DNA of 63,970 nucleotides, counting the filler, from an uncultured bacterium (GTDB lineage: Bacteria; CAZSTA01), in the NCBI GenBank assembly GCA_964609495.1. It is 4 parts of 4 records of this genome, joined end to end, with 100 filler letters (N's around TTAATTAATTAA, not from the genome) between each part and the next. Parts side by side here need not be neighbours in the genome. Positions count along the whole stretch, not along the records: positions 48,737 to 63,970 come from CAZSTA010000077.1; 3 more parts are not named here. One strand, 5' to 3'. Below the pieces are notes generated by a model that saw nothing but the letters and a program-made list of their open reading frames with translations, searched no databases and had not been told where the DNA came from. Made by a program: the position numbers and the translations under genes. The stretch's first letter is position 1; the number at the start of each line of letters is the position of its first letter. Positions 3,024 to 61,229 of the stretch are shown here, piece after piece.

Positions 3024-3879
3024 AAGAAAAGGATGGACGATCATTCAATTAATATTAGCGCTGGGAGCTTTAACTATGCTCTTCCCTTTGCTTTGGACTA
3101 TTTCCACCTCTCTTAAATCTCCGGAGCAGATGGGTAGCGATCCCGGCGCGTGGCTTCCCAATCCTTGGATGTGGAGCAATTATGTAAAGGCTATGAAGGT
3201 GGTCCCCTTCGGTCGTTACTTTTTCAACTCCACGGTAGTTACGATCTCTAAAGTGATTTTGCGCCTCTTCTTATGCTCCTTGGGAGGATATACTTTTGCT
3301 CGCCTTAGATTCAAAGGCCGCGAATTTATTTTTATCATCATCCTAGCCACAATGATGATCCCCTGGCAGGTGACTCTAATTCCGGTATTCATCATCCTGA
3401 AAAAGATGCCCTTTTTTGGAGGGAATAACGCTTTCGGGGTAGGAGGGACAGGATGGATAAATACCTATTGGTCATTGATCATACCTGGAGCAGTCGATGC
3501 CTTCGGCATCTTTTTGATGAGGCAGTTCTTCAAAATACTTCCCAAAGCCTTGGAGGATGCCGCGCGAATAGATGGAGCTAGCGAGTTCGGGATCTATTGG
3601 CGAATTATGTTACCTTTAGCTAAACCAGCTTTGACTACGCTAGGGATCTTAACTTTCACCCAGACCTGGAATTTCTTTCTCTGGCCCCTTATTGTTACTA
3701 CTACCGATTCGATGCGCACAGTTCAATTAGGGCTGACTGTATTCAGGAGTCAATATGATATAGAGTGGAATCTACTTATGGCCGCGGTGGTAGTGATCAC
3801 CTTGCCTATCTTATTCGTATTTACTCTTGGGCAAAGATATTTCGTTCAAGGAATCGCCCTTACCGGAATGAAGGGATAG
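3007..3879 (+). CDS. Carbohydrate ABC transporter permease (MalG-like)
   Basis: LEDAARIDGAS motif; WNFFLWPL; TM segments. Confidence 0.92.
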   Translation: MLNTYRRKGWTIIQLILALGALTMLFPLLWTISTSLKSPEQMGSDPGAWLPNPWMWSNYVKAMKVVPFGRYFFNSTVVTISKVILRLFLCSLGGYTFARLRFKGREFIFIIILATMMIPWQVTLIPVFIILKKMPFFGGNNAFGVGGTGWINTYWSLIIPGAVDAFGIFLMRQFFKILPKALEDAARIDGASEFGIYWRIMLPLAKPALTTLGILTFTQTWNFFLWPLIVTTTDSMRTVQLGLTVFRSQYDIEWNLLMAAVVVITLPILFVFTLGQRYFVQGIALTGMKG

Positions 3880-3930
3880 TCTATAAAATTATCTACTTAA
3901 AGGATAATTTGCTGGACGATATGACCTAAT

Positions 3931-3960
3931 AGTCGGTTGGGTAAACCGGCTTATTTTTTT
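3931..3960 (+). terminator. Rho-independent terminator
   Basis: AGTCGGTT-loop-AACCGGCT stem followed by a T-tract. Confidence 0.7.
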
Positions 3961-3979
3961 GAAGCGGAGATATCTTTTA

Positions 3980-4036
3980 TAAATCACCCTCCCCTAACTT
4001 CTCTCCCATTAAAGGAGGGGAAAATAAAAGGGTGAG
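3980..4036 (+). repeat. Degenerate BoxC-like hairpin repeat (family B)
   Basis: TAAATCACCCTCCCCTAAC...CCCATTAAAGGAGGGG matches the copies at 14109, 24845 and 48290. Confidence 0.65.
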
Positions 4037-4065
4037 AAGCATTGTATCTAAAAGAAGGTAATCCT

Positions 4066-5304
4066 ATGTCATCAGAAGAGAACAAGCCCATCTTCCAACG
4101 TCGGAAAGCAGTCGATGAGGCGACTGAAGCAAAACTGAAAGCGATCGATAAGGCGACGCTGACGCTCCTTGTGCGGCGCGCTCTGGGCTGTGAAACAGTT
4201 GAGGTTATCGATTGGGACTATCAAGAGCTCCATGGTGGCGCTAGCGGTTCGAGAGTATATCGCCTCGCCGGGAGCGGACAGGATCGGGGAGATACGATTC
4301 CATGGTCGCTCATCCTCAAAGTCATCCATCCATCGACTGATATCAATATTGATAGCGATAATCTATCTAGCTTTGTATACTGGAAGCGTGAGCCGCTCGC
4401 TTATGAATCGGGGTTGCTGGACGACTTGCCCGGTAGTCTGGTGGCGCCGGAGTGTTTCGGTATCGTCGAGCAGCCAGGTGAGGAGGTCTGGATCTGGCTC
4501 GAGGAGGTCACGGACGAGATTGGGCCGCGATGGCCCTTGGAGCGCTATGGTATCGCCGCGCGTCACTTAGGTCAGTTCAATGGCGCATACCTGGCTGGGC
4601 AGCCGTTGCCACCCTACCCATGGCTGAGTAGGGGGTGGGTGCGGACGCCGCCTCATTTTGTTCGTGATCGGACTGTCTCTGGAATCGCTAAACTCCGCAG
4701 TTCTCTGGAGAACCCGCTGGTGCACCGCTGGTTTCCAGCCGATAGCGCTGATCGTCTCCTTCGTCTCTGGGAGGAGCGCGAGATGTTACTCGACGCCTTC
4801 GATCGCCTGCCCCAAACCCTCTGTCACCATGATGCATTTCGTCGTAACCTGTTTGTGCGACGCAGTGCAGATGGTCGTGATCAGACCGTGGCTGTTGATT
4901 GGGCATTTGTGGGAAAAGGAATGATCGGGGAAGAGATAGTGACCCTTGTTCAGACGAGCCTCTTCTTCCAGGAGGCCGATCTAGCTGAGGCGCCGGAGCT
5001 AGATGAAATTGCCTTCGAGGGTTACTTGGAGGGACTGCGTGACGCCGGCTGGCGCGGCGATCCGCGAATGGTGCGGTTTGGCTACACAGCCGCATCGGCC
5101 TTACGCAACGTCAGTGGCATGGGGGCAGCTATACCCTTCCTGCTCGACGAGAGCCGATACGTTCAGATGGAGCAGAGGATGGGGCGTCCAATCGAGGAGA
5201 TGATGAATTTCTTTGCTGAGACGGTTCGTCTTATGCTCAACTTGGGGGACGAAGCGCGGGAACTGCTAGACTCCCTTCGATTTTTGGATAAGACGGGAAA
5301 GTAA
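4066..5304 (+). CDS. Aminoglycoside phosphotransferase/choline kinase family protein
   Basis: HHDAFRRNLF catalytic loop and VDW metal-binding motif; ATG at 4066 chosen. Confidence 0.8.
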   Translation: MSSEENKPIFQRRKAVDEATEAKLKAIDKATLTLLVRRALGCETVEVIDWDYQELHGGASGSRVYRLAGSGQDRGDTIPWSLILKVIHPSTDINIDSDNLSSFVYWKREPLAYESGLLDDLPGSLVAPECFGIVEQPGEEVWIWLEEVTDEIGPRWPLERYGIAARHLGQFNGAYLAGQPLPPYPWLSRGWVRTPPHFVRDRTVSGIAKLRSSLENPLVHRWFPADSADRLLRLWEEREMLLDAFDRLPQTLCHHDAFRRNLFVRRSADGRDQTVAVDWAFVGKGMIGEEIVTLVQTSLFFQEADLAEAPELDEIAFEGYLEGLRDAGWRGDPRMVRFGYTAASALRNVSGMGAAIPFLLDESRYVQMEQRMGRPIEEMMNFFAETVRLMLNLGDEARELLDSLRFLDKTGK

Positions 5305-12974: not shown

Positions 12975-13466
12975 GTGTATGAAGATCAAAGAGTCGGACT
13001 ATTTGTAGATGTTCAGAACATGTTTTATTCTGCTAAGAAGATTTATAATGCTAAATTAGATTTTGAGAAGTTATTAGAAGCTACTATAAGGGGAAGGAAA
13101 ATGATAAGAGCTATCGCTTATATTATTCAATCTCCAAATACTGATCAATCCAGCTTTATCAATATGTTAAAACTCAGGGGATATGAGGTGAAATCTAAAG
13201 ATTTACGTCTTCGCCCAGATGGAACAGCTAAGGGTGATTGGGATATGGGTATCGCCATTGATACCATATCTCTGGTTGATAAATTAGACGTTGCTATTCT
13301 CGTTAGTGGGGATGGAGATTTCATAGACTTGGTAACGATGTTGAAGAGCCGGGGGGTGAGGGTAGAGGTATTTTCCTTTCCAGCAAGCACTAGAACCGAA
13401 CTCATTAGTGTAGCTACGGAGTTCTTCCCTATCCACGATGATATGCTTATCTTCAACTGCGTTTAA
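12975..13466 (+). CDS. NYN domain protein (LabA/DUF88)
   Basis: FVDVQN, KGDWDMGIAID and LVSGDGDF motifs. Confidence 0.92.
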   Translation: MYEDQRVGLFVDVQNMFYSAKKIYNAKLDFEKLLEATIRGRKMIRAIAYIIQSPNTDQSSFINMLKLRGYEVKSKDLRLRPDGTAKGDWDMGIAIDTISLVDKLDVAILVSGDGDFIDLVTMLKSRGVRVEVFSFPASTRTELISVATEFFPIHDDMLIFNCV

Positions 13467-13514
13467 AGGAAACTTTTTTACCTTGAGTTTTGTTTGAAGC
13501 AAAAGTTTCCTTTA
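13464..13514 (-). repeat. Family A ~51-bp palindromic repeat; supplies the NYN stop codon
   Basis: Reverse complement is TAAAGGAAACTTTTGCTTCAAACAAAACTCAAGGTAAAAAAGTTTCCTTTA, 2 differences from the pyrK copy. Confidence 0.9.
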
Positions 13515-41290: not shown

Positions 41291-42400
41291 TTATAAAGCC
41301 CGAAGTATCTCTGTGGCTATCTTATCTAAGGGAACTACTTTATCTATCTGGCCTGAGGCGATCGCTGATTTGGGCATTCCGAATACCACACAGGAGTCAC
41401 GATCTTGAGCTATTGTTCTACCTCCTCTTCTCTTTATCTCTCTTATCCCTTCGGTCCCATCCCTCCCCATTCCGGTGAGAATTACTCCCGCGCTATTACT
41501 TCCATAGACTTCAGCTACCGAGGCCATAGTTATATCCACGGCTGGTCTTACTCCTAAATGTAAGGGTCCTTGATTTAGGGTAGCGTTGATCTCATAATTT
41601 TCTTGCTCATTTATCCTTCCTGTAACTTCTAAGTGGTAGTTCCCAGGGGCTACCAAAACTCTCCCAGGGAGAACTGTATCTCCCTCCGTCGCCTCCTTGA
41701 CCTCGAGCTGAGATCTTTCGTTCAAACGTTCCGCTAGCGATCTGGTAAAACCAGGGGGCATATGCTGAACTACGATAATCCCGGTCTCGATATCAGCAGG
41801 AAGCTTAGCTAATATTTGGATAAGGGCGCGTGGTCCTCCAGTCGAGGCTCCGATAACTACGGCCTTATTTTTTGTTGTTCTTTCTCTCTCGATTGATACT
41901 GGTTTGGTGAGAACTTCTTCCTCTTTATGATCTAACTTCCTCACCTCAATATTGGCTGCTGTTCTCACCTTGGAGATGAGATTATCCATCACTCGAGAAA
42001 TATCCAGGGATATCTCTCCCGAGGGCTTAGGCACGAAATCGACTGCCCCTAATTCCAGCGATTTTATTGTGGCTTGAGCATCGATTCTGGTATGGGCGCT
42101 TAACATAATAACTGGAGTAGGGAACTCCTTCATAATGTGCTTAAGAGTGCTTATCCCGTCCAGGCGAGGCATCTCTATATCTAAAGTGATGACATCGGGT
42201 CTTAATTGTAGTATCTTTTCCAGGGCATCCTCTCCATTTCTAGCTGTGGCGATAACCTCGATATCTGGATAGGAGTTAAGCATATCTGATACAACCGTCC
42301 TTATGAAAGCCGAGTCATCTACAACTAGAACCCTTATCTTGTTTCTCACAGGAGGGTAGCTCTCCTCTCCACTCCTCTGCATTCTATTCACAGTTCCCAC
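41291..42400 (-). CDS. cheB: Chemotaxis methylesterase response regulator
   Basis: REC domain (VVDDS, LDIEMP); GASTGGP, VQHMP and LTGMGRDG. Confidence 0.96.
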   Translation of the reverse strand: MGTVNRMQRSGEESYPPVRNKIRVLVVDDSAFIRTVVSDMLNSYPDIEVIATARNGEDALEKILQLRPDVITLDIEMPRLDGISTLKHIMKEFPTPVIMLSAHTRIDAQATIKSLELGAVDFVPKPSGEISLDISRVMDNLISKVRTAANIEVRKLDHKEEEVLTKPVSIERERTTKNKAVVIGASTGGPRALIQILAKLPADIETGIIVVQHMPPGFTRSLAERLNERSQLEVKEATEGDTVLPGRVLVAPGNYHLEVTGRINEQENYEINATLNQGPLHLGVRPAVDITMASVAEVYGSNSAGVILTGMGRDGTEGIREIKRRGGRTIAQDRDSCVVFGMPKSAIASGQIDKVVPLDKIATEILRAL

Positions 42401-42873
42401 TTGCCTTTTTTAACAGATCTAACTACTACTAAACCATTCTCGGTGAAGAATTCAAGAGAGCGGCCATAGTTCCCTCCGGTATCCTCAGCAACTATGTCGA
42501 TTTCTTTATTATTTAATATCTTTTTAACTGCCAGGATATTTCTCCCTCCTATACTTTTCATTCTGTTATTCATAGTTGAGGAGAACATACTCGCTCCTCC
42601 TACTAATTTAGCCTTTATTCTCCTCTGAGAGGCTCTTAGTATCATCATCTCCTCGATCATAAGATCAATCGCTAGATCAGCGAACTTCGCTGGATATTTC
42701 CTCTTATTCGATATAGAACTATCTGGTAACATTATATGAGCTAATCCCCCCAACTTCTTGAGGGGGTCGTATAACATGACCGCTACGCAGGAGCCTAGTC
42801 CATAGGTTACTAAAATATTGGGACTTTGGGTAACCTTAATTTCTGATGATTTTACCCTTAATATCTCTCTCAT
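42388..42873 (-). CDS. cheD: Chemoreceptor glutamine deamidase
   Basis: TYGLGSCVAV, GGLAHIMLP, AKLVGGASMF and EDTGG..GR. Confidence 0.95.
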   Translation of the reverse strand: MREILRVKSSEIKVTQSPNILVTYGLGSCVAVMLYDPLKKLGGLAHIMLPDSSISNKRKYPAKFADLAIDLMIEEMMILRASQRRIKAKLVGGASMFSSTMNNRMKSIGGRNILAVKKILNNKEIDIVAEDTGGNYGRSLEFFTENGLVVVRSVKKGKWEL

Positions 42874-42910: not shown

Positions 42911-42957
42911 AAAAAACCGGCGTGAAAACCCCTACCCTTGTGGTAGGGGTGGTTGAC
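42911..42957 (-). mobile_element. 47-bp solo-hairpin remnant of an IscB-type IS200/IS605 element
   Basis: Minus strand GTCAACCACCCCTACCACAAGGGTAGGGGTTTTCACGCCGGTTTTTT then ATAAA; joins both end motifs of the 57730-59238 element through one shared hairpin. Confidence 0.8.
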
Positions 42958-52218: not shown

Positions 52219-53839
52219 GGTAAGGGTTATACTAGTATTCACGGTTTTGCTGGCAATGTTCCTAAGCGGGTGTGAAAAGGGAAAAGCTGGAGATACTGTC
52301 CCAGGAAAGGGAACTATCCAGGGGGTTATAAAGGATGCAACAACGCAGAATCCAATTGAGAATGCAGAGGTATCAGTTCAAGGGACAAACCTGAAGACTA
52401 CTACTAATGCTCAAGGACAATACACCATACAGGATGTTCCAGAAGGCACCCGAACTGTGATAGCGACAGCCACGGGATATACCTCTCAAAGTAAATCGGT
52501 CAACGTTACTGCCAACACCACGACAACTGTAGATTTTTCCCTGACTCCTTCATCGGCGGGGGGAGATACCTATTATGTATCAACTACTGGAGATGATTCG
52601 AATCCGGGGACAGAATCACAGCCCTGGCGAACCATTCAGCATGCGGCTGAAACAATGACTGCTGGCGACACAGTTTTGATCAGAGGCGGTGTATATAATG
52701 AGCGAGTATTCACTACGCTCAGCGGAAACACTACCGATGGTTATATAACATTCTCCGCCTACCCAAACGAAACACCTGTAATTGATGGGACTGGTGTAAC
52801 TACTGGAGATAATGGTTTTGTTATATCTCATTCCTATATTAAACTCATCGGTCTTGAAATTCGTAACTGGGATGAAAACGGAATATGGATAGAGAATGCG
52901 GGACATATGGAGATCTCCGATTGTGAAGTCCATCACGTCTTTTATGGTATTGGGGCTGCAGATGGAACCCATGATTTTGAACTCAACCGAGTGGAGATGC
53001 ACCACTTCGACCTATATGGATTCGATGCTTCTCCCTCTGGTGGCGCTGATTGTTACAACGGAACCTTCAATGACTGCATCTCCCATACAGGACGAGATCC
53101 TGAGCAGAATGTAGATGGCTTTGCCCTTGGTCATGGAACCCAGCATGATTTTGTATTTAATCGCTGTGAGACCTATGAGGTCTATGATGGATTTGATATA
53201 AGCGCGCGTAACACTACCCTTAATCGCTGTTCTGCCCATGACTGCTGGAACGGTGGATATAAACTTTGGCAAGATAAGGTAACTCTCGTTAATTGTCTAG
53301 GCTATCACAGTGAAGGCAGTAATGTGGAGTTGGACTGGGACGGAAATCCAGGCACCACCACGCTTCAGAATTGCACCTTTGTGGATGCTCAGGTTTTCAA
53401 TATCTGGGTGGAGAATTCCGCTGATCGCCTGCATATGTATAACTGCATCCTTGCTGGTGGTGATAACATCGGTCTGGCATTTGAACAGATGGGGGTAAAT
53501 AACTATCAGGGCGATTACAATATCTTTCATAATGATAATTCTAATCGGGCAATTGCCGTCGGCTATACTGACGAATTTTCCCTGAATCAGATTAAGGCGG
53601 GAAATTGGACAAGCTATAGTGGTCAAGACCAACATTCCCTAGTTTCTTCCAATCCAAATAGCGAACTCTTCAAAGATATGAGCAATTGGGATTTCCATCT
53701 CATAGAGGGAAGTATCGCTATTGATAAAGGAACCTCAGTGAATGCTCCCTCAGTTGATTATGATGGTAATCCTCGACCCCAAGGTGCTGGATATGACATA
53801 GGTGCTTATGAATATGGATCTTCTTCAGCTTCTGAATAA
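52208..53839 (+). CDS. Paralogous beta-helix lipoprotein
   Basis: Same N- and C-terminal modules as the previous gene with a different core; SD GGAGG before ATG 52208. Confidence 0.82.
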   Translation: MKIRVRVILVFTVLLAMFLSGCEKGKAGDTVPGKGTIQGVIKDATTQNPIENAEVSVQGTNLKTTTNAQGQYTIQDVPEGTRTVIATATGYTSQSKSVNVTANTTTTVDFSLTPSSAGGDTYYVSTTGDDSNPGTESQPWRTIQHAAETMTAGDTVLIRGGVYNERVFTTLSGNTTDGYITFSAYPNETPVIDGTGVTTGDNGFVISHSYIKLIGLEIRNWDENGIWIENAGHMEISDCEVHHVFYGIGAADGTHDFELNRVEMHHFDLYGFDASPSGGADCYNGTFNDCISHTGRDPEQNVDGFALGHGTQHDFVFNRCETYEVYDGFDISARNTTLNRCSAHDCWNGGYKLWQDKVTLVNCLGYHSEGSNVELDWDGNPGTTTLQNCTFVDAQVFNIWVENSADRLHMYNCILAGGDNIGLAFEQMGVNNYQGDYNIFHNDNSNRAIAVGYTDEFSLNQIKAGNWTSYSGQDQHSLVSSNPNSELFKDMSNWDFHLIEGSIAIDKGTSVNAPSVDYDGNPRPQGAGYDIGAYEYGSSSASE

Positions 53840-53948
53840 AGGTAGCTCTTTATCTCCAGGGGAGTAGTCCCACAATTGATGCTGGAACATTATTTTATTT
53901 GAAAAGAGGAGGACAGAGTTGATTAAGCGGAATATTCGGCATAGGATA

Positions 53949-54555
<607 letters not shown>

Positions 54556-54578
54556 TATCGATCGAAAGCGGAGGTTTC

Positions 54579-55526
54579 TTGAGTATGCAGCTAAAAAGTA
54601 AGGACCTTTTGGGGCTTCGTGATATAGGAGAGGATGAGATATATCTCATCTTGGATACCGCGGAATCTTTCAAAGAGGTATTAACCCGTCCTATAAAAAA
54701 GTTGCCGACTCTACGAGGTAAGACTTGCCTCACGTTATTCTACGAGCCAAGCACTAGGACCAGATCTTCCTTCGAGTTGGCCGCTAAGTATCTAGGGGCG
54801 GATACGCTCTCTGTTTCCGCCTCCACTAGTAGCGTAGTTAAGGGAGAATCGCTTTATGATACCGCTAAGACGGTGGAGGCTATGGGGGTCGATATAATAG
54901 TTATTAGACATTCAGCGGCTGGTGCTCCTGAGATGCTCTCGAAAATCGTTCGATCTTCGGTGGTCAACGCTGGAGATGGGGCTCACGAGCATCCCACTCA
55001 AGCACTCTTAGATCTATTCACGATTAGGGAGAAGAAAGGTAGAATAGAAGGACTTAAAGTTGCAATTATAGGGGATATCTTGCACAGCCGCGTAGCCAGA
55101 TCCAATATCTATGGCTTAACTAAATTGGGAGCCCAGGTGGTATTAGCTGGACCTGCTACCCTTCTTCCCCCTCAAGTAGAACGACTAGGGGCAGAGGTGA
55201 CAACTGATATGAAGGAAGCGATCACTGATGCTGATGTGGTATATATGCTGAGGATTCAGAGAGAGAGGCAGAAGAAGGGATTGTTCCCCTCTATAAGGGA
55301 ATATACAATGCTCTATAGGTTAGATAAGGAGAAGCTAAAGTTAGCTAAAGAGGATGCCCTAGTTATGCATCCTGGTCCTATAAATAGGGGGATTGAGATC
55401 TCAGCGGAGGTCGCCGATGGATCTCACTCGGTTATAACTGAGCAGGTTCATAATGGAGTAGCTATAAGAATGTCAATATTATATTTGGTAGGTGGCGGTG
55501 CTTCTGATGTGGAAAAGGGAGGATAG
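54579..55526 (+). CDS. pyrB: Aspartate carbamoyltransferase catalytic subunit
   Basis: [21 protein letters not shown] and HPGPINRG. Confidence 0.97.
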
Positions 55527-55569
55527 AAAATGGAGAGGAAGGAATCCTTTTCTAGTAGGGGAGGATTAT

Positions 55570-56880
55570 ATGAAATTATTATTAAAGGGCGGTCGAGTTA
55601 TAGATCCTGCTACTGCTCTTGATGAAGTGATGGATATATTGATCGAAGATAGCAAGATAGTAGCTATGGGTAGCTATATCTCCGCCTCCGAGGCTTGCCT
55701 TGTGGATGTCAGAGGCAAGATAGTCGCCCCTGGCTTGATAGATATGCATACCCATTTAAGAGAGCCTGGTTATGAGGATAAAGAGGATATCGCTTCAGGG
55801 ACAAAGAGCGCCGCTAAAGGGGGATTTACCAGTGTAGCGTGTATGCCAAATACCGAGCCGCCCCTGGACGATCAAGCTAAGCTTCAATTTGTTCTGGATA
55901 AGGCGAGGCGCGAGGGGGTTGTCAATGTCTTCCCGATAGGATGTATCACTAAGGGGCGTAAAGGAGAGGAGTTGACGGAGATAGCTGAGTTGAAGAGAAG
56001 CGGAGCAGTAGCGATCTCTGATGATGGACAGTCCGTTCCCAGATCCGATCTACTTCGTCGAGCTTTAGAATATGCAGGGATGTTCAACCTACCAGTTATC
56101 GAGCATTGCGAGGATAAAGATCTCGCCCAAGATGGGGTTATGAACGAGGGATATATGTCCACTGTTTTGGGGCTGAGAGGTATCCCCGAGGCGGCGGAGG
56201 AGATCATAGTAGCTCGGGATATCATCTTAGCAGAGATGAGTGGAAGTCACATCCACATCGCTCATGCTAGCACCGCGCGAACAGTGGAACTCATCCGGGA
56301 AGCTAAGCAGAGAGGAGTAAAGGTCACCGCAGAGGCCACCCCCCATCACTTGATCTTGACCGAGGAGGCGGTATCTGATTATAACACTAATACTAAGGTT
56401 AACCCTCCGCTTCGAACTGAGGATGATGTAGAGGCTCTTCGCGTTGGTTTAGTGGATGGAACGATAGATGCTATCGCTACCGATCACGCTCCTCATACTA
56501 TTGAGGATAAACAGGTAGAATATGATTATGCCCCCTTCGGGATATCGGGATTGGAGACGGCAGTTCCTCTCCTTATAACTCATCTAGTTCAACCAGGGAT
56601 TATCTCTTTAAGTGATCTCATATCCAAGATGACTATAGAGCCAGCTAGGATATTAAGACTCGACAAAGGAAGGTTGGAAGTGGGAGGAGAGGCTGATATA
56701 ACCGTCATTGACCTCGATAGAGAGGATATCGTCGAGGTAGCCGAATTCGAGTCGAGGGGGAAGAACTCCCCCTTTCAGGGATGGAAGCTAAGGGGATATC
56801 CCTCTCTGACGATAGTTGGAGGAAGGATAGTCTTTAGCGCCCTAGAAAAAGTTATTTCGGAAATTAGCGATGATAGTTGA
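55570..56880 (+). CDS. pyrC: Dihydroorotase
   Basis: DMHTHLREPG, KVNPPLR and ATDHAPH. Confidence 0.96.
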   Translation: MKLLLKGGRVIDPATALDEVMDILIEDSKIVAMGSYISASEACLVDVRGKIVAPGLIDMHTHLREPGYEDKEDIASGTKSAAKGGFTSVACMPNTEPPLDDQAKLQFVLDKARREGVVNVFPIGCITKGRKGEELTEIAELKRSGAVAISDDGQSVPRSDLLRRALEYAGMFNLPVIEHCEDKDLAQDGVMNEGYMSTVLGLRGIPEAAEEIIVARDIILAEMSGSHIHIAHASTARTVELIREAKQRGVKVTAEATPHHLILTEEAVSDYNTNTKVNPPLRTEDDVEALRVGLVDGTIDAIATDHAPHTIEDKQVEYDYAPFGISGLETAVPLLITHLVQPGIISLSDLISKMTIEPARILRLDKGRLEVGGEADITVIDLDREDIVEVAEFESRGKNSPFQGWKLRGYPSLTIVGGRIVFSALEKVISEISDDS

Positions 56881-57763
56881 TATAATCGATAATATAAAGG
56901 TGGCGGATGCTCACTTCAGGATGATCTTGAATGCGGACTCTCTAGCTAGGGAGGTTCAACCCGGTCAATTCGTTCACCTAAGATGCAGGGATAAGTTCTA
57001 TTACGATCCCCTTCTGAGAAGACCGTTTAGTATCCATCGCTTTAATCGTGATAGAGGGGAAGTTCAAATACTCTACAAGGTTATCGGTAAAGGGACTTCT
57101 TGGCTAGCGGAGAGGGGAAATGGGCATAAATAAGATTTACTCGGTCCTTTGGGGCAAGGTTTCAATATCCACTCTAATTCGGATAATGCTATATTGGTAG
57201 CTGGAGGGATAGGAGTAGCTCCTCTCCTAGCCCTGGCTGACCTTATCCGGGGAGAATATCCTCATATAAATTTGGTTGTGCTTCTAGGAGCTAGGAAGAG
57301 AGAGGAGCTACTTTGTGAGAGGGATTTTAGGGATACAGGAGCAGAAGTAATACCCGTTACGGATGATGGAAGTTGGGGGAGGAAGGCATTAGTTACCGAA
57401 ATTTTAGAAGATATATTAAGGGAGAGGGGGGAAAGGAAGCCAGATAAAAAGAGGAGTGTAATCTATTCCTGCGGTCCAAAAGAGATGCTTAGAGAGGTCT
57501 CTCGCTTGAGTATGGAGTATGGACTCCCCTGCCAGATATCATTGGAGGAGATGATGGCTTGTGGAGTAGGAGCTTGTTTAGGCTGTGTCGTAGCCGTTCA
57601 ATCGAGTGTAAAGGAAACTTTTGCTTCCAATAAAACTCAAGGTAAAAAAGTTTCCTTTAAAGGTGAATCTCCGAAGTATAAGAGAGTTTGTGTAGAAGGC
57701 CCTGTTTTCTCCGCTGAAGAGGTGATCCTGTCAACAACCCCTACCACGAGGGTAGGGGCTTGA
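56870..57763 (+). pseudogene. pyrK: Dihydroorotate dehydrogenase electron transfer subunit with an in-frame TAA at 57131-57133
   Basis: PGQFV, LRRPFSI, GHK*DLLGPLGQGF, GGIGVAP and CGVGACLGC...VCVEGPVF; both ORF pieces share one frame. Confidence 0.85.
57609..57659 (+). repeat. Family A repeat, in-frame in the pyrK 2Fe-2S loop
   Basis: TAAAGGAAACTTTTGCTTCCAATAAAACTCAAGGTAAAAAAGTTTCCTTTA, encoding [16 protein letters not shown]. Confidence 0.92.
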
Positions 57764-57976
57764 GAGATCAAGCCCTGGTTGACTAGGAGGCACTGGTATA
57801 GTGCAGAAGTTAGCGAAGAGAAATACATACACACCTGGGGATACTCCTCTCGTTCCCAGCTCTGTGGCTTGTCATTAAACAGTTCTGAGGGTAGGAACAG
57901 TGTGACAGGCTTAAAAACCTTGGCTAACAACTCCGAAGAGGCTCTAACCCACCGTTAGGTGGAGTAAGGAGGCTTT
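57730..57976 (+). ncRNA. omegaRNA (HEARO-type) scaffold
   Basis: Starts GTCAAC...GTTGAC enclosing hairpins; further stems GTCA..AC-GTTC..GAAC-GTGTGAC; directly 5' of iscB. Confidence 0.85.
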
Positions 57977-59176
57977 ATGTTAGCCTTCGTTATTAACAGA
58001 GATAGGAAACCTTTGATGCCTTGCCATTCTGCTAAAGCAAGGATACTGCTTAAAGAAGGTAAGGCGAAGGTAGTCAGAAGAAAGCCGTTCACTATTCAGT
58101 TGTTATATGGTAGTTCTGGTTACAAGCAACCGATCACTCTGGGAGTAGATGCAGGTTATAGCAGTATTGGTCTATCTGCTATCACTGAGAAGGAGGAAGT
58201 TTTCCGAGCCGAGGTAAGATTAAGAGACGACATTGTAAAGCTCAATTCGGAAAGGAGGATATATCGTAGAGCAAGAAGAGGGCGTAAGAGATGGCATCGT
58301 AAAGCACGCTTCCTTAATCGCAAGAAACCGGAGGGTTGGTTAGCTCCTTCTATTCGGCATAAGTTAGACTCACATATTAGGATAATTGAGAAGGTTAAAG
58401 AGCTATTACCTATTACTAAAATAATCGTAGAGGTAGCTTCCTTTGATATTCAGAAGATCAAGAATCCTGATATTTCAGGGAGAGAATATCAGAATGGGGA
58501 ACAGAAAGGGTTTGGGAATGTTAGAGAATATGTCCTCTATCGAGATAATCATACTTGTCGACACTGTAAAGGCCGATCTAAGGATCCGGTCTTAGAAGTT
58601 CATCATATCGAGACGAGACAGATCGGTGGGAACAGGCCAGATGATTTAATTACACTCTGCTCTACTTGTCATCGGAAGGTATCTCAGGGGAAACTTAAGC
58701 TTAAGGTTCAGCCATCTAAAGGATTTAGAGCAGAAACTTTTATGACTATGATTAGGTGGAGATTAGTTAATGAGCTAAGAAAAAGAGGTAACGAGGTTTC
58801 TCATACCTATGGGTATATTACAAAGCAGAGACGGATAGAATTAGGACTGGAGAAATCCCATATTAACGATGCTTTTGCGATAGCCGGAGGTAAGGGGCAG
58901 AGTAGATTATCCAATTATTATTTAATTCAGCAAGTTAGGAAGCAGAATCGCAGGTTGTTTAAGGGTAAAAGAAGTCATATTAGAAATACTGCTCCCAGAT
59001 TTATAGAGGGTTTTCAAAGATATGATAAGGTGTTATATCGAAGAGAGGAGTGTTTCATATATGGCAGGCGTAGTGCTGGTTATTTTAATTTGAGGAAGTT
59101 AGATGGTGATGTTATTCACCAGTCGGCAAAGGTTAAAGAGTTGAAGTTATTAGAAACATTTAAGACTTTATTATGA
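57977..59176 (+). CDS. iscB: RNA-guided endonuclease IscB
   Basis: PLMP domain, RuvC-I LGVDAG, bridge helix [11 protein letters not shown], Ruv[14 protein letters not shown] (CRHC...HHI...LCSTCH), Ruv[12 protein letters not shown]. Confidence 0.95.
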
Positions 59177-59238
59177 GAGGAGGAGGTGTCGGCTTCTTCC
59201 CCTACCACGAGGGTAGGGGTTTCCGCCGACTAGTTTCT

Positions 59239-60216
59239 ATGAAGGGGGAGACAATAAAGGAAACTTTTGCAGGCAATAAAACTCAAGGTAAAAAAGTTTC
59301 CTTTAAACCGAACTTAGAGGTTCTGCTAGGTGGAATAAGGATGAAGAATCCAGTTATGGTCGCCTCGGGGACTTTCGGGTATGGGGAGGAGTACTCCTCC
59401 TACGTTGACCTGAATAGATTAGGAGCTATCGTAGTAAAGGGAACTACCTTGAAGCCTCGGGAGGGGAATCCTCCTCCTCGGATAGTGGAGACTCCAGCAG
59501 GTATCCTTAACGCCATCGGATTGCAGAACGTAGGAATAGAAGTATTCCTCAAGGAGAAGATGAGTTATCTACGTCAATTTGATACTGCTATCATCGTCAA
59601 TATCGCTGGAGAGAGGATCGAGGAATATATCAAATTAGCTGAGATACTCGATGAGGTAGAAGGGATCGCTGGGCTAGAGCTTAATATCTCTTGTCCAAAT
59701 GTCAAAAAAGGGGGATCGGCGTTTGGAGCTAACCCTGAAGTAACTTATGAGGTGGTAAGTAGGGTCAGAAGAGTTACCCATCTTCCCCTTATCGTTAAGC
59801 TTTCTCCCAATGTAGGGGATATAGCATCTATCGCTCACAGGGCCGAGGAGGCAGGGGCTGATGTCCTATCACTTATCAATACCTTATTAGGAATGGCAAT
59901 AGATATAGAGGCTCGCAGACCGATATTAGCTAACATCACTGGAGGATTATCAGGACCAGCTATTAAACCCATCGCCTTGCGAATGGTATGGCAGGTAGCT
60001 AAGGCAGTGAAGATCCCCGTCGTAGGAATGGGAGGAATCACAACTGTCGAGGATGCCTTGGAATTTATCATCGCTGGAGCCAGAGCGGTAGCTATAGGCA
60101 CCGCTAATTTCATCGAGCCTCGAACCTGCATAAATATAATTGAGGGCTTGGAGAAATATCTGAAGGAGAATAATATAGCTGATATAAGGGAATTGATAGG
60201 TAGTTTAAGGGTATGA
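59239..60216 (+). CDS. pyrD: Dihydroorotate dehydrogenase (family 1B); alternative in-frame start at 59173
   Basis: [31 protein letters not shown] and [10 protein letters not shown]. Confidence 0.95.
59255..59305 (+). repeat. Family A repeat, in-frame at the pyrD N-terminus
   Basis: TAAAGGAAACTTTTGCAGGCAATAAAACTCAAGGTAAAAAAGTTTCCTTTA, encoding [16 protein letters not shown]. Confidence 0.92.
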
Positions 60217-60220
60217 TAGA

Positions 60221-60297
60221 TTTAAGATATCTTTAAGCAAAATGTAATCTCATCTTAATCTAATGTTAATTTAATCTTAATATTACTGGTGTATAAT
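60221..60297 (+). promoter_or_regulatory. Pho-box-like array plus -10 element upstream of pstS
   Basis: Six 11-bp-phased units with an (n)TTAA core (one TGTAA), then TATAAT at 60292. Confidence 0.7.
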
Positions 60298-60362
60298 AGG
60301 TGTAGAGCATCAAGGAGAAGTTAAATTTATCAAAGAGTCAAAACAAAAGGAGGAATTTCAAG

Positions 60363-61229
60363 TTGTTAAAAAAGTTTTTAGTAGCATCTGTGTTAGTCGT
60401 AAGTCTTCTGATCGGAACTCTGGTATCCGCTGAGGAACCTGTAACCTCCGGTTACATCCAGGTTAAGGGTTCGGATACTATGGTTAATCTAGGACAGGCT
60501 TGGGCTGAGGGATTTATGGAGAAATATCCCGAGGCTATGATAGCAGTTACTGGGGGTGGCTCTGGGACTGGTATCGCCGCTATGATTAATGGAACTACCG
60601 ATATAGCTGAATGCTCTCGAGAGATGAAGGAAAAAGAGATTGAGCAAGCTAAAGCCAACAAGATTGAGCCTATAGAGTTTGTAGTAGCTTTAGATGGGAT
60701 AGCGATAGTTGTTCATCCCTCCAATCCTGTAAGCGATTTAACCTTCCAGCAATTATCCGAGATCTTCACCGGTAAGATAAAGAATTGGAAGGAAGTCGGC
60801 GGAAATGATGAGGCGATCGTGCTTCTCTCTAGGGAGTCTAATTCTGGAACCCATGTTTACTTCAAGGAACATATATTGAACTGCTGTGGTCTTGAGGGTC
60901 AAGAGTTTTCTCCCGAGGCTTTGTTGATGCCCTCCTCTCAATCGATCGCCGATGAGGTAGCTCAGAATCCCAAAACTATCGGTTACTATGGAATGGGTTA
61001 CATCAGTGAAAAGCAGAAAGCGATGGTAGTTGCTAAGGATGAAAATTCTCCTTATGTAGAGCCTACTATAGATAACGTTATCTCTGGCGATTATCCCGTT
61101 TCCCGTCCTCTTTACTTCTACACCGCGGGAGAGCCTAAAGGATTAGTAAAGACCTATGTCGATTTCGTTCTTTCTGATGAGGGACAGGATATAGTTCTCC
61201 AGCTCGATTTTGTGCCGATTAAGAAGTAA
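60363..61229 (+). CDS. pstS: Phosphate ABC transporter substrate-binding protein
   Basis: KGSDTM, GGGSGTG, RESNSGT and YPVSRPL. Confidence 0.95.
   Translation: MLKKFLVASVLVVSLLIGTLVSAEEPVTSGYIQVKGSDTMVNLGQAWAEGFMEKYPEAMIAVTGGGSGTGIAAMINGTTDIAECSREMKEKEIEQAKANKIEPIEFVVALDGIAIVVHPSNPVSDLTFQQLSEIFTGKIKNWKEVGGNDEAIVLLSRESNSGTHVYFKEHILNCCGLEGQEFSPEALLMPSSQSIADEVAQNPKTIGYYGMGYISEKQKAMVVAKDENSPYVEPTIDNVISGDYPVSRPLYFYTAGEPKGLVKTYVDFVLSDEGQDIVLQLDFVPIKK

Follow-up and report, generated by a model that had tools for sequence, protein, structure and literature searches.

The model IS200/IS605 element, IS608 of Helicobacter pylori, contains the genes tnpA and tnpB; its subterminal hairpins are in direct orientation, about 19 nt from the tip at its left end (LE) and about 10 nt from the tip at its right end (RE). 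According to the available part of PMC13565253, it inserts after TTAC. ISC transposons were defined by Kapitonov, Makarova and Koonin in 2016 (PMC4810608); in the available text of that article, ISC elements with 5'-GTCA and ATGA-3' termini insert at N|ATGA, as judged by empty sites in Microcystis, and further ISC families insert within GT|GA or GT|GG. The available part of the preprint of Meers et al. (10.1101/2023.03.14.532601) presents HEARO as the omegaRNA bounded by the RE, whose guide comes from the sequence beyond the 5' end of the element and needs transcription that starts outside, and reports that iscB and the genes before it tend to share an orientation and that GstIscB cuts the donor joint left by TnpA. 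The target-adjacent motif (TAM) of GstIscB is given there as TTCAT, written 5' of the LE, which is ATGAA on the IscB strand. DtIsrB cleaves at TTGA/ATGA and has an NTGA TAM in the accessible portion of PMC9581776, and that of PMC12660989 gives the OgeuIscB TAM as NWRRNA. Here, we describe an IscB element in a 63,970-nt stretch of DNA (the window) from the genome assembly of an uncultured bacterium (GCA_964609495.1, lineage CAZSTA01). It is very probably a non-autonomous IS200/IS605-type ISC element lying in the pyr operon directly 5' of an ATGA that combines the TGA stop of pyrK with the ATG of pyrD.

At the left junction, aggtgatcct (57720-57729) is followed by gtcaacaacc from 57730, and at the right junction ctagtttcta (59230-59239) is followed by tgaagg from 59240. 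Joining 57729 to 59239 gives GAA GAG GTG ATC CTA TGA (EEVIL*), and the ATG at 59239 opens pyrD. On this reading, the element spans 57730-59238 (1509 bp), with CCT and ATGA as its flanks and no target duplication. The preliminary description of this locus had read the junction in the same way; the bases agree, and the PyrK homologues end there. Eight of these homologues stop at ...AEE(I/V)xW plus 0-3 residues, at the EEVIL column of the alignment, and the window PyrK open reading frame (ORF) continues for 10 residues (STTPTTRVGA) encoded by the element, at the start of the RNA. Of the two element limits proposed at the outset, the left one stood, since 57730 is also the first base of the match to HEARO, an independent Rfam model, and the right one was placed by analogy, as discussed below. 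The HEARO match (135.8 bits against a gathering score of 83, E 1.5e-29) covers model positions 1-211 of 211 and lies upstream of iscB, which starts at 57977, on the same strand.

The two ends of the element share a 21-nt hairpin, CCCCTACCACGAGGGTAGGGG, which occurs twice on the same strand (57738-57758 and 59199-59219; 0 expected by chance). The LE hairpin lies 19 nt inside the 3' tip and the RE hairpin 8 nt inside the 5' tip, compared with about 19 and 10 nt in IS608. Folded as DNA, the LE structure reached -14.7 kcal/mol (z -3.2) on the + strand and -15.1 kcal/mol (z -4.1) on the - strand. We also mapped four metagenome runs (X1-X4) onto the window at 90% likeness, which gave short contigs at a depth of about 3-5; the runs that contain the locus are salt-marsh and marsh metagenomes. 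Contig 18 of X3 begins at 57730, and contig 26 of X4 matches 57730-57793 and is preceded by 76 unrelated bases, so that 57730 is a repeat boundary; the sequence of the X4 contig hints at a second copy of the element elsewhere.

The encoded protein matched RRXRR (5.4e-66, residues 4-174) and HNH (1.2e-06, residues 194-236) in Pfam, contains a PLMP motif at residues 12-15, and retrieved IscB chains from the PDB at 1e-50 to 4e-49 with phmmer. Residues 3-327 align to OgeuIscB (7xht, 7utn and 8csz; E 4e-49) with the same domain order: GVDAG, IVEVASF and EVHHIE stand opposite GIDPG, VLELNRF and HYHHVV, and the fourth motif lies opposite DHYLDAYCIA, so that the D, E, HH and H..D motifs of RuvC and HNH are all present. 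OgeuIscB, however, is longer (496 aa), and the alignment does not extend to its C-terminal part, which reads the TAM. Together, the HEARO, RRXRR/HNH and PDB chain alignments bear out the initial assignment to an IscB/omegaRNA element of IS200/IS605 type.

The preliminary description took the guide from the flank 5' of the omegaRNA, which is the rule given in the available part of 10.1101/2023.03.14.532601, and had it supplied by read-through of the pyr operon. This supply fits the locus, where the genes are co-directional on the + strand and no terminator-like site was found between pyrK and the omegaRNA; a promoter and terminator scan of 53600-60500 returned counts at chance level. The presumed guide flank contains a Shine-Dalgarno-like GAGGTGA, and a search of the window for its last 16 nt at 0 mismatches gave a single occurrence. 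The reading of ATGA in the preliminary description, as a reported target and TAM, likewise agrees with the accessible parts of PMC4810608 and of the reports on GstIscB (ATGAA) and DtIsrB, and with 27 of 30 relatives described below. The bases that follow the element, ATGAA, match all five bases of the GstIscB TAM.

From these features and by analogy with described systems, the following course can be proposed. On the IscB strand, the element is ordered as RE hairpin, omegaRNA (HEARO), iscB and LE with the identical hairpin. TnpA, a Y1 transposase supplied in trans, would cut the hairpin-marked ends, and a single strand would be inserted beside TCAT (ATGA when read on the IscB strand). The pyr-operon transcript would then read from pyrK into the element, yielding an omegaRNA whose 5' guide consists of the last pyrK bases, ...CTGAAGAGGTGATCCT. 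IscB with this RNA would cut an element-free pyrK-pyrD junction, where the guide match is followed by the TAM ATGA(A); the occupied site would be spared, because GTCA follows the match there. The element-holding copy would serve as the repair template, and the element would be restored.

The closest described elements are N|ATGA ISC elements (ISC1-1_MA of Microcystis aeruginosa, ISC2-1_HM and ISC2-1_MS), which in the available text of PMC4810608 are non-autonomous, begin with 5'-GTCA, lie 5' of ATGA without a duplication and share ends with IS605-type elements. The window element differs in that its IscB is truncated, at only 399 aa, and that no partner IS605/TnpA element was seen. ISGst5/GstIscB of Geobacillus stearothermophilus, as presented in the available part of its preprint, resembles it in having a HEARO-type omegaRNA at the RE, an outside guide and an ATGAA TAM; the two are likened by description, and activity was measured for GstIscB, whereas the window element is known from its sequence. 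DtIsrB, an OMEGA nickase, is also omegaRNA-guided with an NTGA/TTGA/ATGA TAM (available part of PMC9581776), but IsrB has no HNH domain and only nicks, whereas the window protein has one. The reading of guide and TAM is therefore standard for the ISC/IscB family and not new, since PMC4810608, the Meers preprint and PMC9581776 already report it. Overall, the ISC/IscB element at the pyrK-pyrD overlap is real and well delimited, and its mechanism would, by analogy, be the known one of the family.

We scanned metagenome contigs and obtained 287 loci encoding IscB relatives, of which the best 80 (46-80% identity) were analysed. HEARO lay upstream of iscB on the same strand in 59 of the 80 loci, and the 5' ends of the relatives were mostly GTCAA(C/T) after unrelated flanks. 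Two further loci presented another arrangement: Group II intron matches (RF00029, 64.4 bits) lie just upstream of their IscB-like ORFs (L041, 30-106; L042, 28-104), which have no HEARO match and are protein relatives in a different mobile context.

What weighs against our reading concerns the right end, the empty allele, the condition of the copy and the breadth of its target preference. We infer the right boundary (59238|59239), and likewise the empty-site junction CCT|ATGA, from relatives and the literature. The 3'-end set comprised 44 rows (the window and 43 loci) with an aligned IscB C-terminus and the 100 nt following it. An automatic hairpin finder and an automatic 3'-end rule misplaced L008, L018, L030 and L033; ends were therefore curated by eye, and 30 of the 44 were placed by a G-rich hairpin arm, TNTCC and 13-18 nt, leaving 14 unplaced. 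The bases after the 3' end were ATGA in 27 of the 30 curated rows and ATAA, ATGG and ATGT in the others, a count that leans towards ATGA because the curation looked for ATG after the LE motif. Between close elements at different sites (L009-L013, L003/L004, L006/L021 and L072/L073), similarity ends right after ATGA or ATAA, and this loss of similarity is the independent part of the 3'-end evidence. Among 14 annotated plasmid records, hand-picked from 83 hits for a spread of genera, with Clostridium botulinum and C. difficile left out, the layout ends with ATGA in 10, with ATAA in one and unclearly in three. If both boundaries were instead shifted by 2 nt, the element would be 57732-59240, inserted in GT|GA, with ATC CTG TGA AGG as the empty site and GTGA as both the stop/start overlap and the TAM. 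Such a placement has precedents in the GT|GA and GT|GG families and in a like ambiguity for an element with GTCA...CGATGA ends (available text of PMC4810608), and frame arguments cannot separate the two, because both give an equal length and an equal PyrK end (I-L-stop). We nevertheless regard it as very unlikely: in the same text, the empty sites of a GTCA...ATGA element put GT in the element and ATGA in the target; the first stem of the HEARO model is formed by GUCAAC and GUUGAC; the TAM measured for GstIscB is TTCAT, that is, ATGAA (available part of 10.1101/2023.03.14.532601); and the relatives always have AT first, with variation in the last two bases (ATAA, ATGG and ATGT).

No contig of the four runs joins 57729 to 59239, a result that short and thin contigs make uninformative, and no relative was close enough to provide an empty site, the best PyrD showing 62% identity (among 185,579 species genomes) and the best PyrK, besides the window's own, 49% (among 5.8 billion proteins). 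A contig of X2 that jumps from 57627 to 59274 was considered as an empty allele and rejected; because the joined frame would lose the last cysteine motif of PyrK, we read it as a k-mer chimera. It passes through 34 bases common to both copies of a 53-nt repeat flanking the region, its left part carries 10 bases and a 9-nt gap that depart from the window, and its right part is identical. Two other loci failed as stand-ins for an empty site. L006 has a frame that stays open through the restored junction, with 417 nt of it upstream, yet the two stretches of the AbiEii profile that it matches (1-43 upstream and 145-224 downstream) do not abut cleanly. In L009, the IscB element lies between dnaN fragments (1928-2245 and 3766-4296) that match the N-domain profile at 1-83 and then the central domain at 69-116; the parts do not abut and are 1 nt out of frame, so that this is not a simple insertion: either about 100 codons were lost when the element inserted, or the locus is a second dnaN copy that has been rearranged. 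The high copy number of the 53-nt repeat and the jumping X2 contig also raise the question of whether a repeat-driven chimera placed the IscB element between pyrK and pyrD during assembly. This is extremely improbable: a 151-nt X2 contig (57711-57861) and a 417-nt contig of X1 (58871-59287), a run that is possibly the window's own sample, each span a junction with 0 differences, and the insertion point has the canonical layout of the family. The junctions are thus not an assembly chimera.

The condition of the copy bears on whether it still acts. The preliminary description held that IscB looks intact, which is right for the catalytic motifs and wrong for the C-terminus: an in-frame TGA removes 18 codons, and 41 of 43 relatives extend 4-31 residues beyond the window IscB end, mostly beginning with xERR. 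The codon at this site is TGG in L037 and GTA in L001, the former tail resembles those of relatives (for example, ERRVGTSSPTD in L001), and the TAG that closes it stands 5 nt before ATGA, so the premature TGA looks from the sequence like a recent nonsense change. When whole, the predicted IscB is about 417 aa and of a compact ATGA type. The copy and its host gene pyrK may be decaying, as the TGA in IscB and an in-frame TAA in pyrK suggest. No Y1_Tnp match was found among 52 of the 65 window ORFs of at least 110 aa (the 13 ORFs omitted being one duplicate and nested, mostly antisense ORFs), and the element is, as far as visible, non-autonomous for this reason. Given the premature TGA and the lack of a TnpA gene in the window, it is uncertain whether this particular copy would cut the empty allele as proposed.

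The locus could accordingly hold the same kind of element as a decaying, immobile relic, with nothing cut or moved today, and we give this a substantial chance that falls somewhat short of even. The lost tail with its 18 open codons, its retention in most relatives, the TAA in pyrK and the lack of a Y1 transposase in the window speak for it, as does L021, another copy, which stops at the same point as the window IscB; a solo-hairpin remnant elsewhere in the window together with a left end that has lost one hairpin arm in L001 suggest that decay is common in the lineage. Against it, the former tail overlaps the LE hairpin, so its conservation may reflect DNA rather than protein. The copy also retains intact RuvC and HNH motifs, a full omegaRNA and undamaged hairpins at its two ends; the TAA in pyrK is unsupported by the runs, where the only contig across it reads TTA; and TnpA normally acts in trans, the window being a small part of the genome.

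We next compared insertion sites across the family, where the element of the window appears to share a wider pattern. A flanking ATG was scored as start-like when it opened an ORF of at least 80 codons (or at least 50 to the contig end) and if, in the restored site, an in-frame stop preceded it by no more than 45 nt without an intervening ATG. Both flanks were available for 20 distinct sites, and the ATG within the adjoining ATGA was start-like in 12 of them, against 212 of 4062 ATGA sites taken at random from 80 unrelated genome loci (p 3e-11). Downstream proteins with informative Pfam matches begin at the profile start in 10 of 12 cases, for example metallophosphoesterase (1-1), NTP_transferase (5-1), DXP reductoisomerase (4-1), CdsA (3-2) and a CheD of normal length, and the two others (L006 and L009) are internal. 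In the plasmid records, an annotated coding sequence starts at the flanking ATG in 6 of 14. Of 52 distinct 5' flanks, 13 carry a Shine-Dalgarno core whose last base falls 3-12 nt ahead of the junction, compared with 9% of all ATGA sites (p 6e-4). On the other side, the IscB stop falls within -4 to +8 nt of ATGA in 18 of 30 rows, and it is the TGA of the flanking ATGA itself in L001, L005 and L037. The idea that an ATGA preference steers the element toward translational-coupling junctions proved too narrow, and so also counts against the reading as first put: stop/start overlaps make up 4 of the 20 sites (the window, L013, L030 and L059) against 3.9% by chance, and start-like sites 12.

We tentatively propose, with slightly less than even confidence, that ATGA-class IscB elements are more than tolerated at gene borders and are built to sit between a ribosome-binding site and an ATG, with translation re-coupled. 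Where the host ATG is the target ATG, the guide would therefore hold the host Shine-Dalgarno region or the upstream gene end; where the IscB frame runs through the LE hairpin and stops at or near the host ATG, ribosomes finishing IscB could therefore begin anew at the host ATG. Such start-codon docking would be a general habit, seen in one instance at the pyrK/pyrD overlap, and may be an adaptation for translational coupling. Much of the pattern could also arise because insertions within genes are selected against and the element needs read-through. HEARO was reportedly first described by Weinberg et al. in 2009, in work that may mention ATGA sites. No report of start-codon docking was found in the literature searched, with Weinberg et al. 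2009 (HEARO) outside its coverage, and the words 'start codon' and 'translation' do not occur in the available text of PMC4810608, nor 'HEARO' in a 2010 Genome Biology paper.

The window also holds a 47-nt solo remnant of the element family (42911-42957, - strand) between cheR and cheD (42391-42873, - strand). It consists, in this order, of GTCAACCA, the hairpin with 1 mismatch and an 18-nt LE-like tail, is followed by ATAA and lies 37 nt before the ATGA of cheD; from its sequence, it looks like a right and a left end fused via their common hairpin. In L001, whose positions 1473-2155 are 94.7% identical over 683 nt to the cheD region of the window (42880-42198), a full IscB element stands directly before the cheD ATGA, so in a close relative a further IscB element, distinct from that of the window, occupies the start codon of a different gene. 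That element shares 74.8% DNA identity with the window element, its IscB stop is the TGA of the cheD ATGA, and its left end has no second hairpin arm.

With the element, the operon reads pyrR-pyrB-pyrC-pyrK-IscB-pyrD, all on the + strand (Table 1). Among 80 distant genomes, pyrK lies directly upstream of pyrD in 78, and 6 of those 78 have the 4-nt pyrK/pyrD overlap according to a crude start finder. The frame across the pyrK TAA translates as ...ERGNGHK*DLLGPLGQGF, and PyrK homologues have L, I or V in the column of the stop. A contig of X3, the sole contig there, has T at 57132 (TTA, Leu), and none of the other three runs gave a contig over the TAA, which could mark a pseudogene, differ between strains or stem from faulty assembly. 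An alternative genetic code was weighed for both in-frame stops, but translation table 11 leaves the remaining ORFs of the window whole, and the idea was set aside. On the pyrD side, an ORF in the pyrD frame begins at 59173, its ATG overlapping the TGA of IscB (again as ATGA), and would add 22 residues to PyrD; PyrD may be made with these extra residues, its own Shine-Dalgarno sequence (GAGGTGA, 57721-57727) being now 1.5 kb off.

Table 1. Features of the IscB element and of the surrounding pyr operon (positions in the window).
Feature	Position	Strand	Basis
Phosphoribosyltransferase gene (pyrR)	53962-54552	+	
pyrB	54552-55523	+	
pyrC	55492-56877	+	
pyrK, first part, closed by in-frame TAA (57131-57133)	56870-57133	+	ORF list
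pyrK, second part, to the insertion point (native end EEVI-L)	57134-57729	+	Pfam NAD_binding_1 and DHODB_Fe-S_bind; alignment of 8 homologues
Presumed guide source, 22 nt (length as in the preliminary description)	57708-57729	+	Position 5' of HEARO
omegaRNA scaffold, HEARO RF02033; first base is the 5' end (RE) of the element	57730-57948	+	Rfam
RE subterminal hairpin, 8 nt from the tip	57738-57758	+	Repeat and pattern search, DNA fold
iscB ORF, 399 aa, ends at in-frame TGA (59174-59176)	57977-59176	+	ORF list, Pfam, phmmer
ATG-started ORF segment in the pyrD frame through the LE (whole ORF 59173-60216, 347 aa)	59173-59238	+	
Former IscB tail, 18 codons open in frame to TAG (59231-59233)	59177-59233	+	Translation
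LE structure, outer stem GTCGGC/GCCGAC around hairpin 59199-59219	59187-59230	+	DNA fold, repeat search
LE 19-nt tail TTTCCGCCGACTAGTTTCT; 59238 is the presumed last element base	59220-59238	+	Layout as in relatives
ATGA: putative target/TAM, pyrD start and pre-insertion pyrK stop	59239-59242	+	Bases, literature, relatives
pyrD, 325 aa	59239-60216	+	Pfam DHO_dh (6.8e-86; residues 26-308 on profile 2-291)

The 53-nt repeat on either side of the element is palindromic (14-bp arms and a 23-nt loop) and occurs three times in the window, at 57609-57661 (+), 59255-59307 (+) and 13462-13514 (-), with 0 expected. The copies in pyrK and pyrD are in frame and are each read as KETFA(S/G)...; that in pyrK splits the Fe-S domain match in two at a loop of variable length, that in pyrD lengthens the N-terminus, and the third gives the stop codon of an NYN-domain ORF. 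In the metagenome runs, the repeat reaches a depth of about 90, compared with about 5 in the flanks, and has many different loose ends, which indicates a high-copy mobile repeat. It matched no Rfam family and was absent from the 160 loci examined. We presume a likeness to the in-frame palindromic elements of Rickettsia.

Locally, the finding changes little, in that the window locus adds a compact ATGA-type IscB from an unsampled lineage. The family-level start-codon pattern is more useful than the single locus. If true, it would explain how an element that depends on read-through can live in operons without killing them, would predict where new insertions lie, and would mean that natural IscB guides are enriched for ribosome-binding regions.

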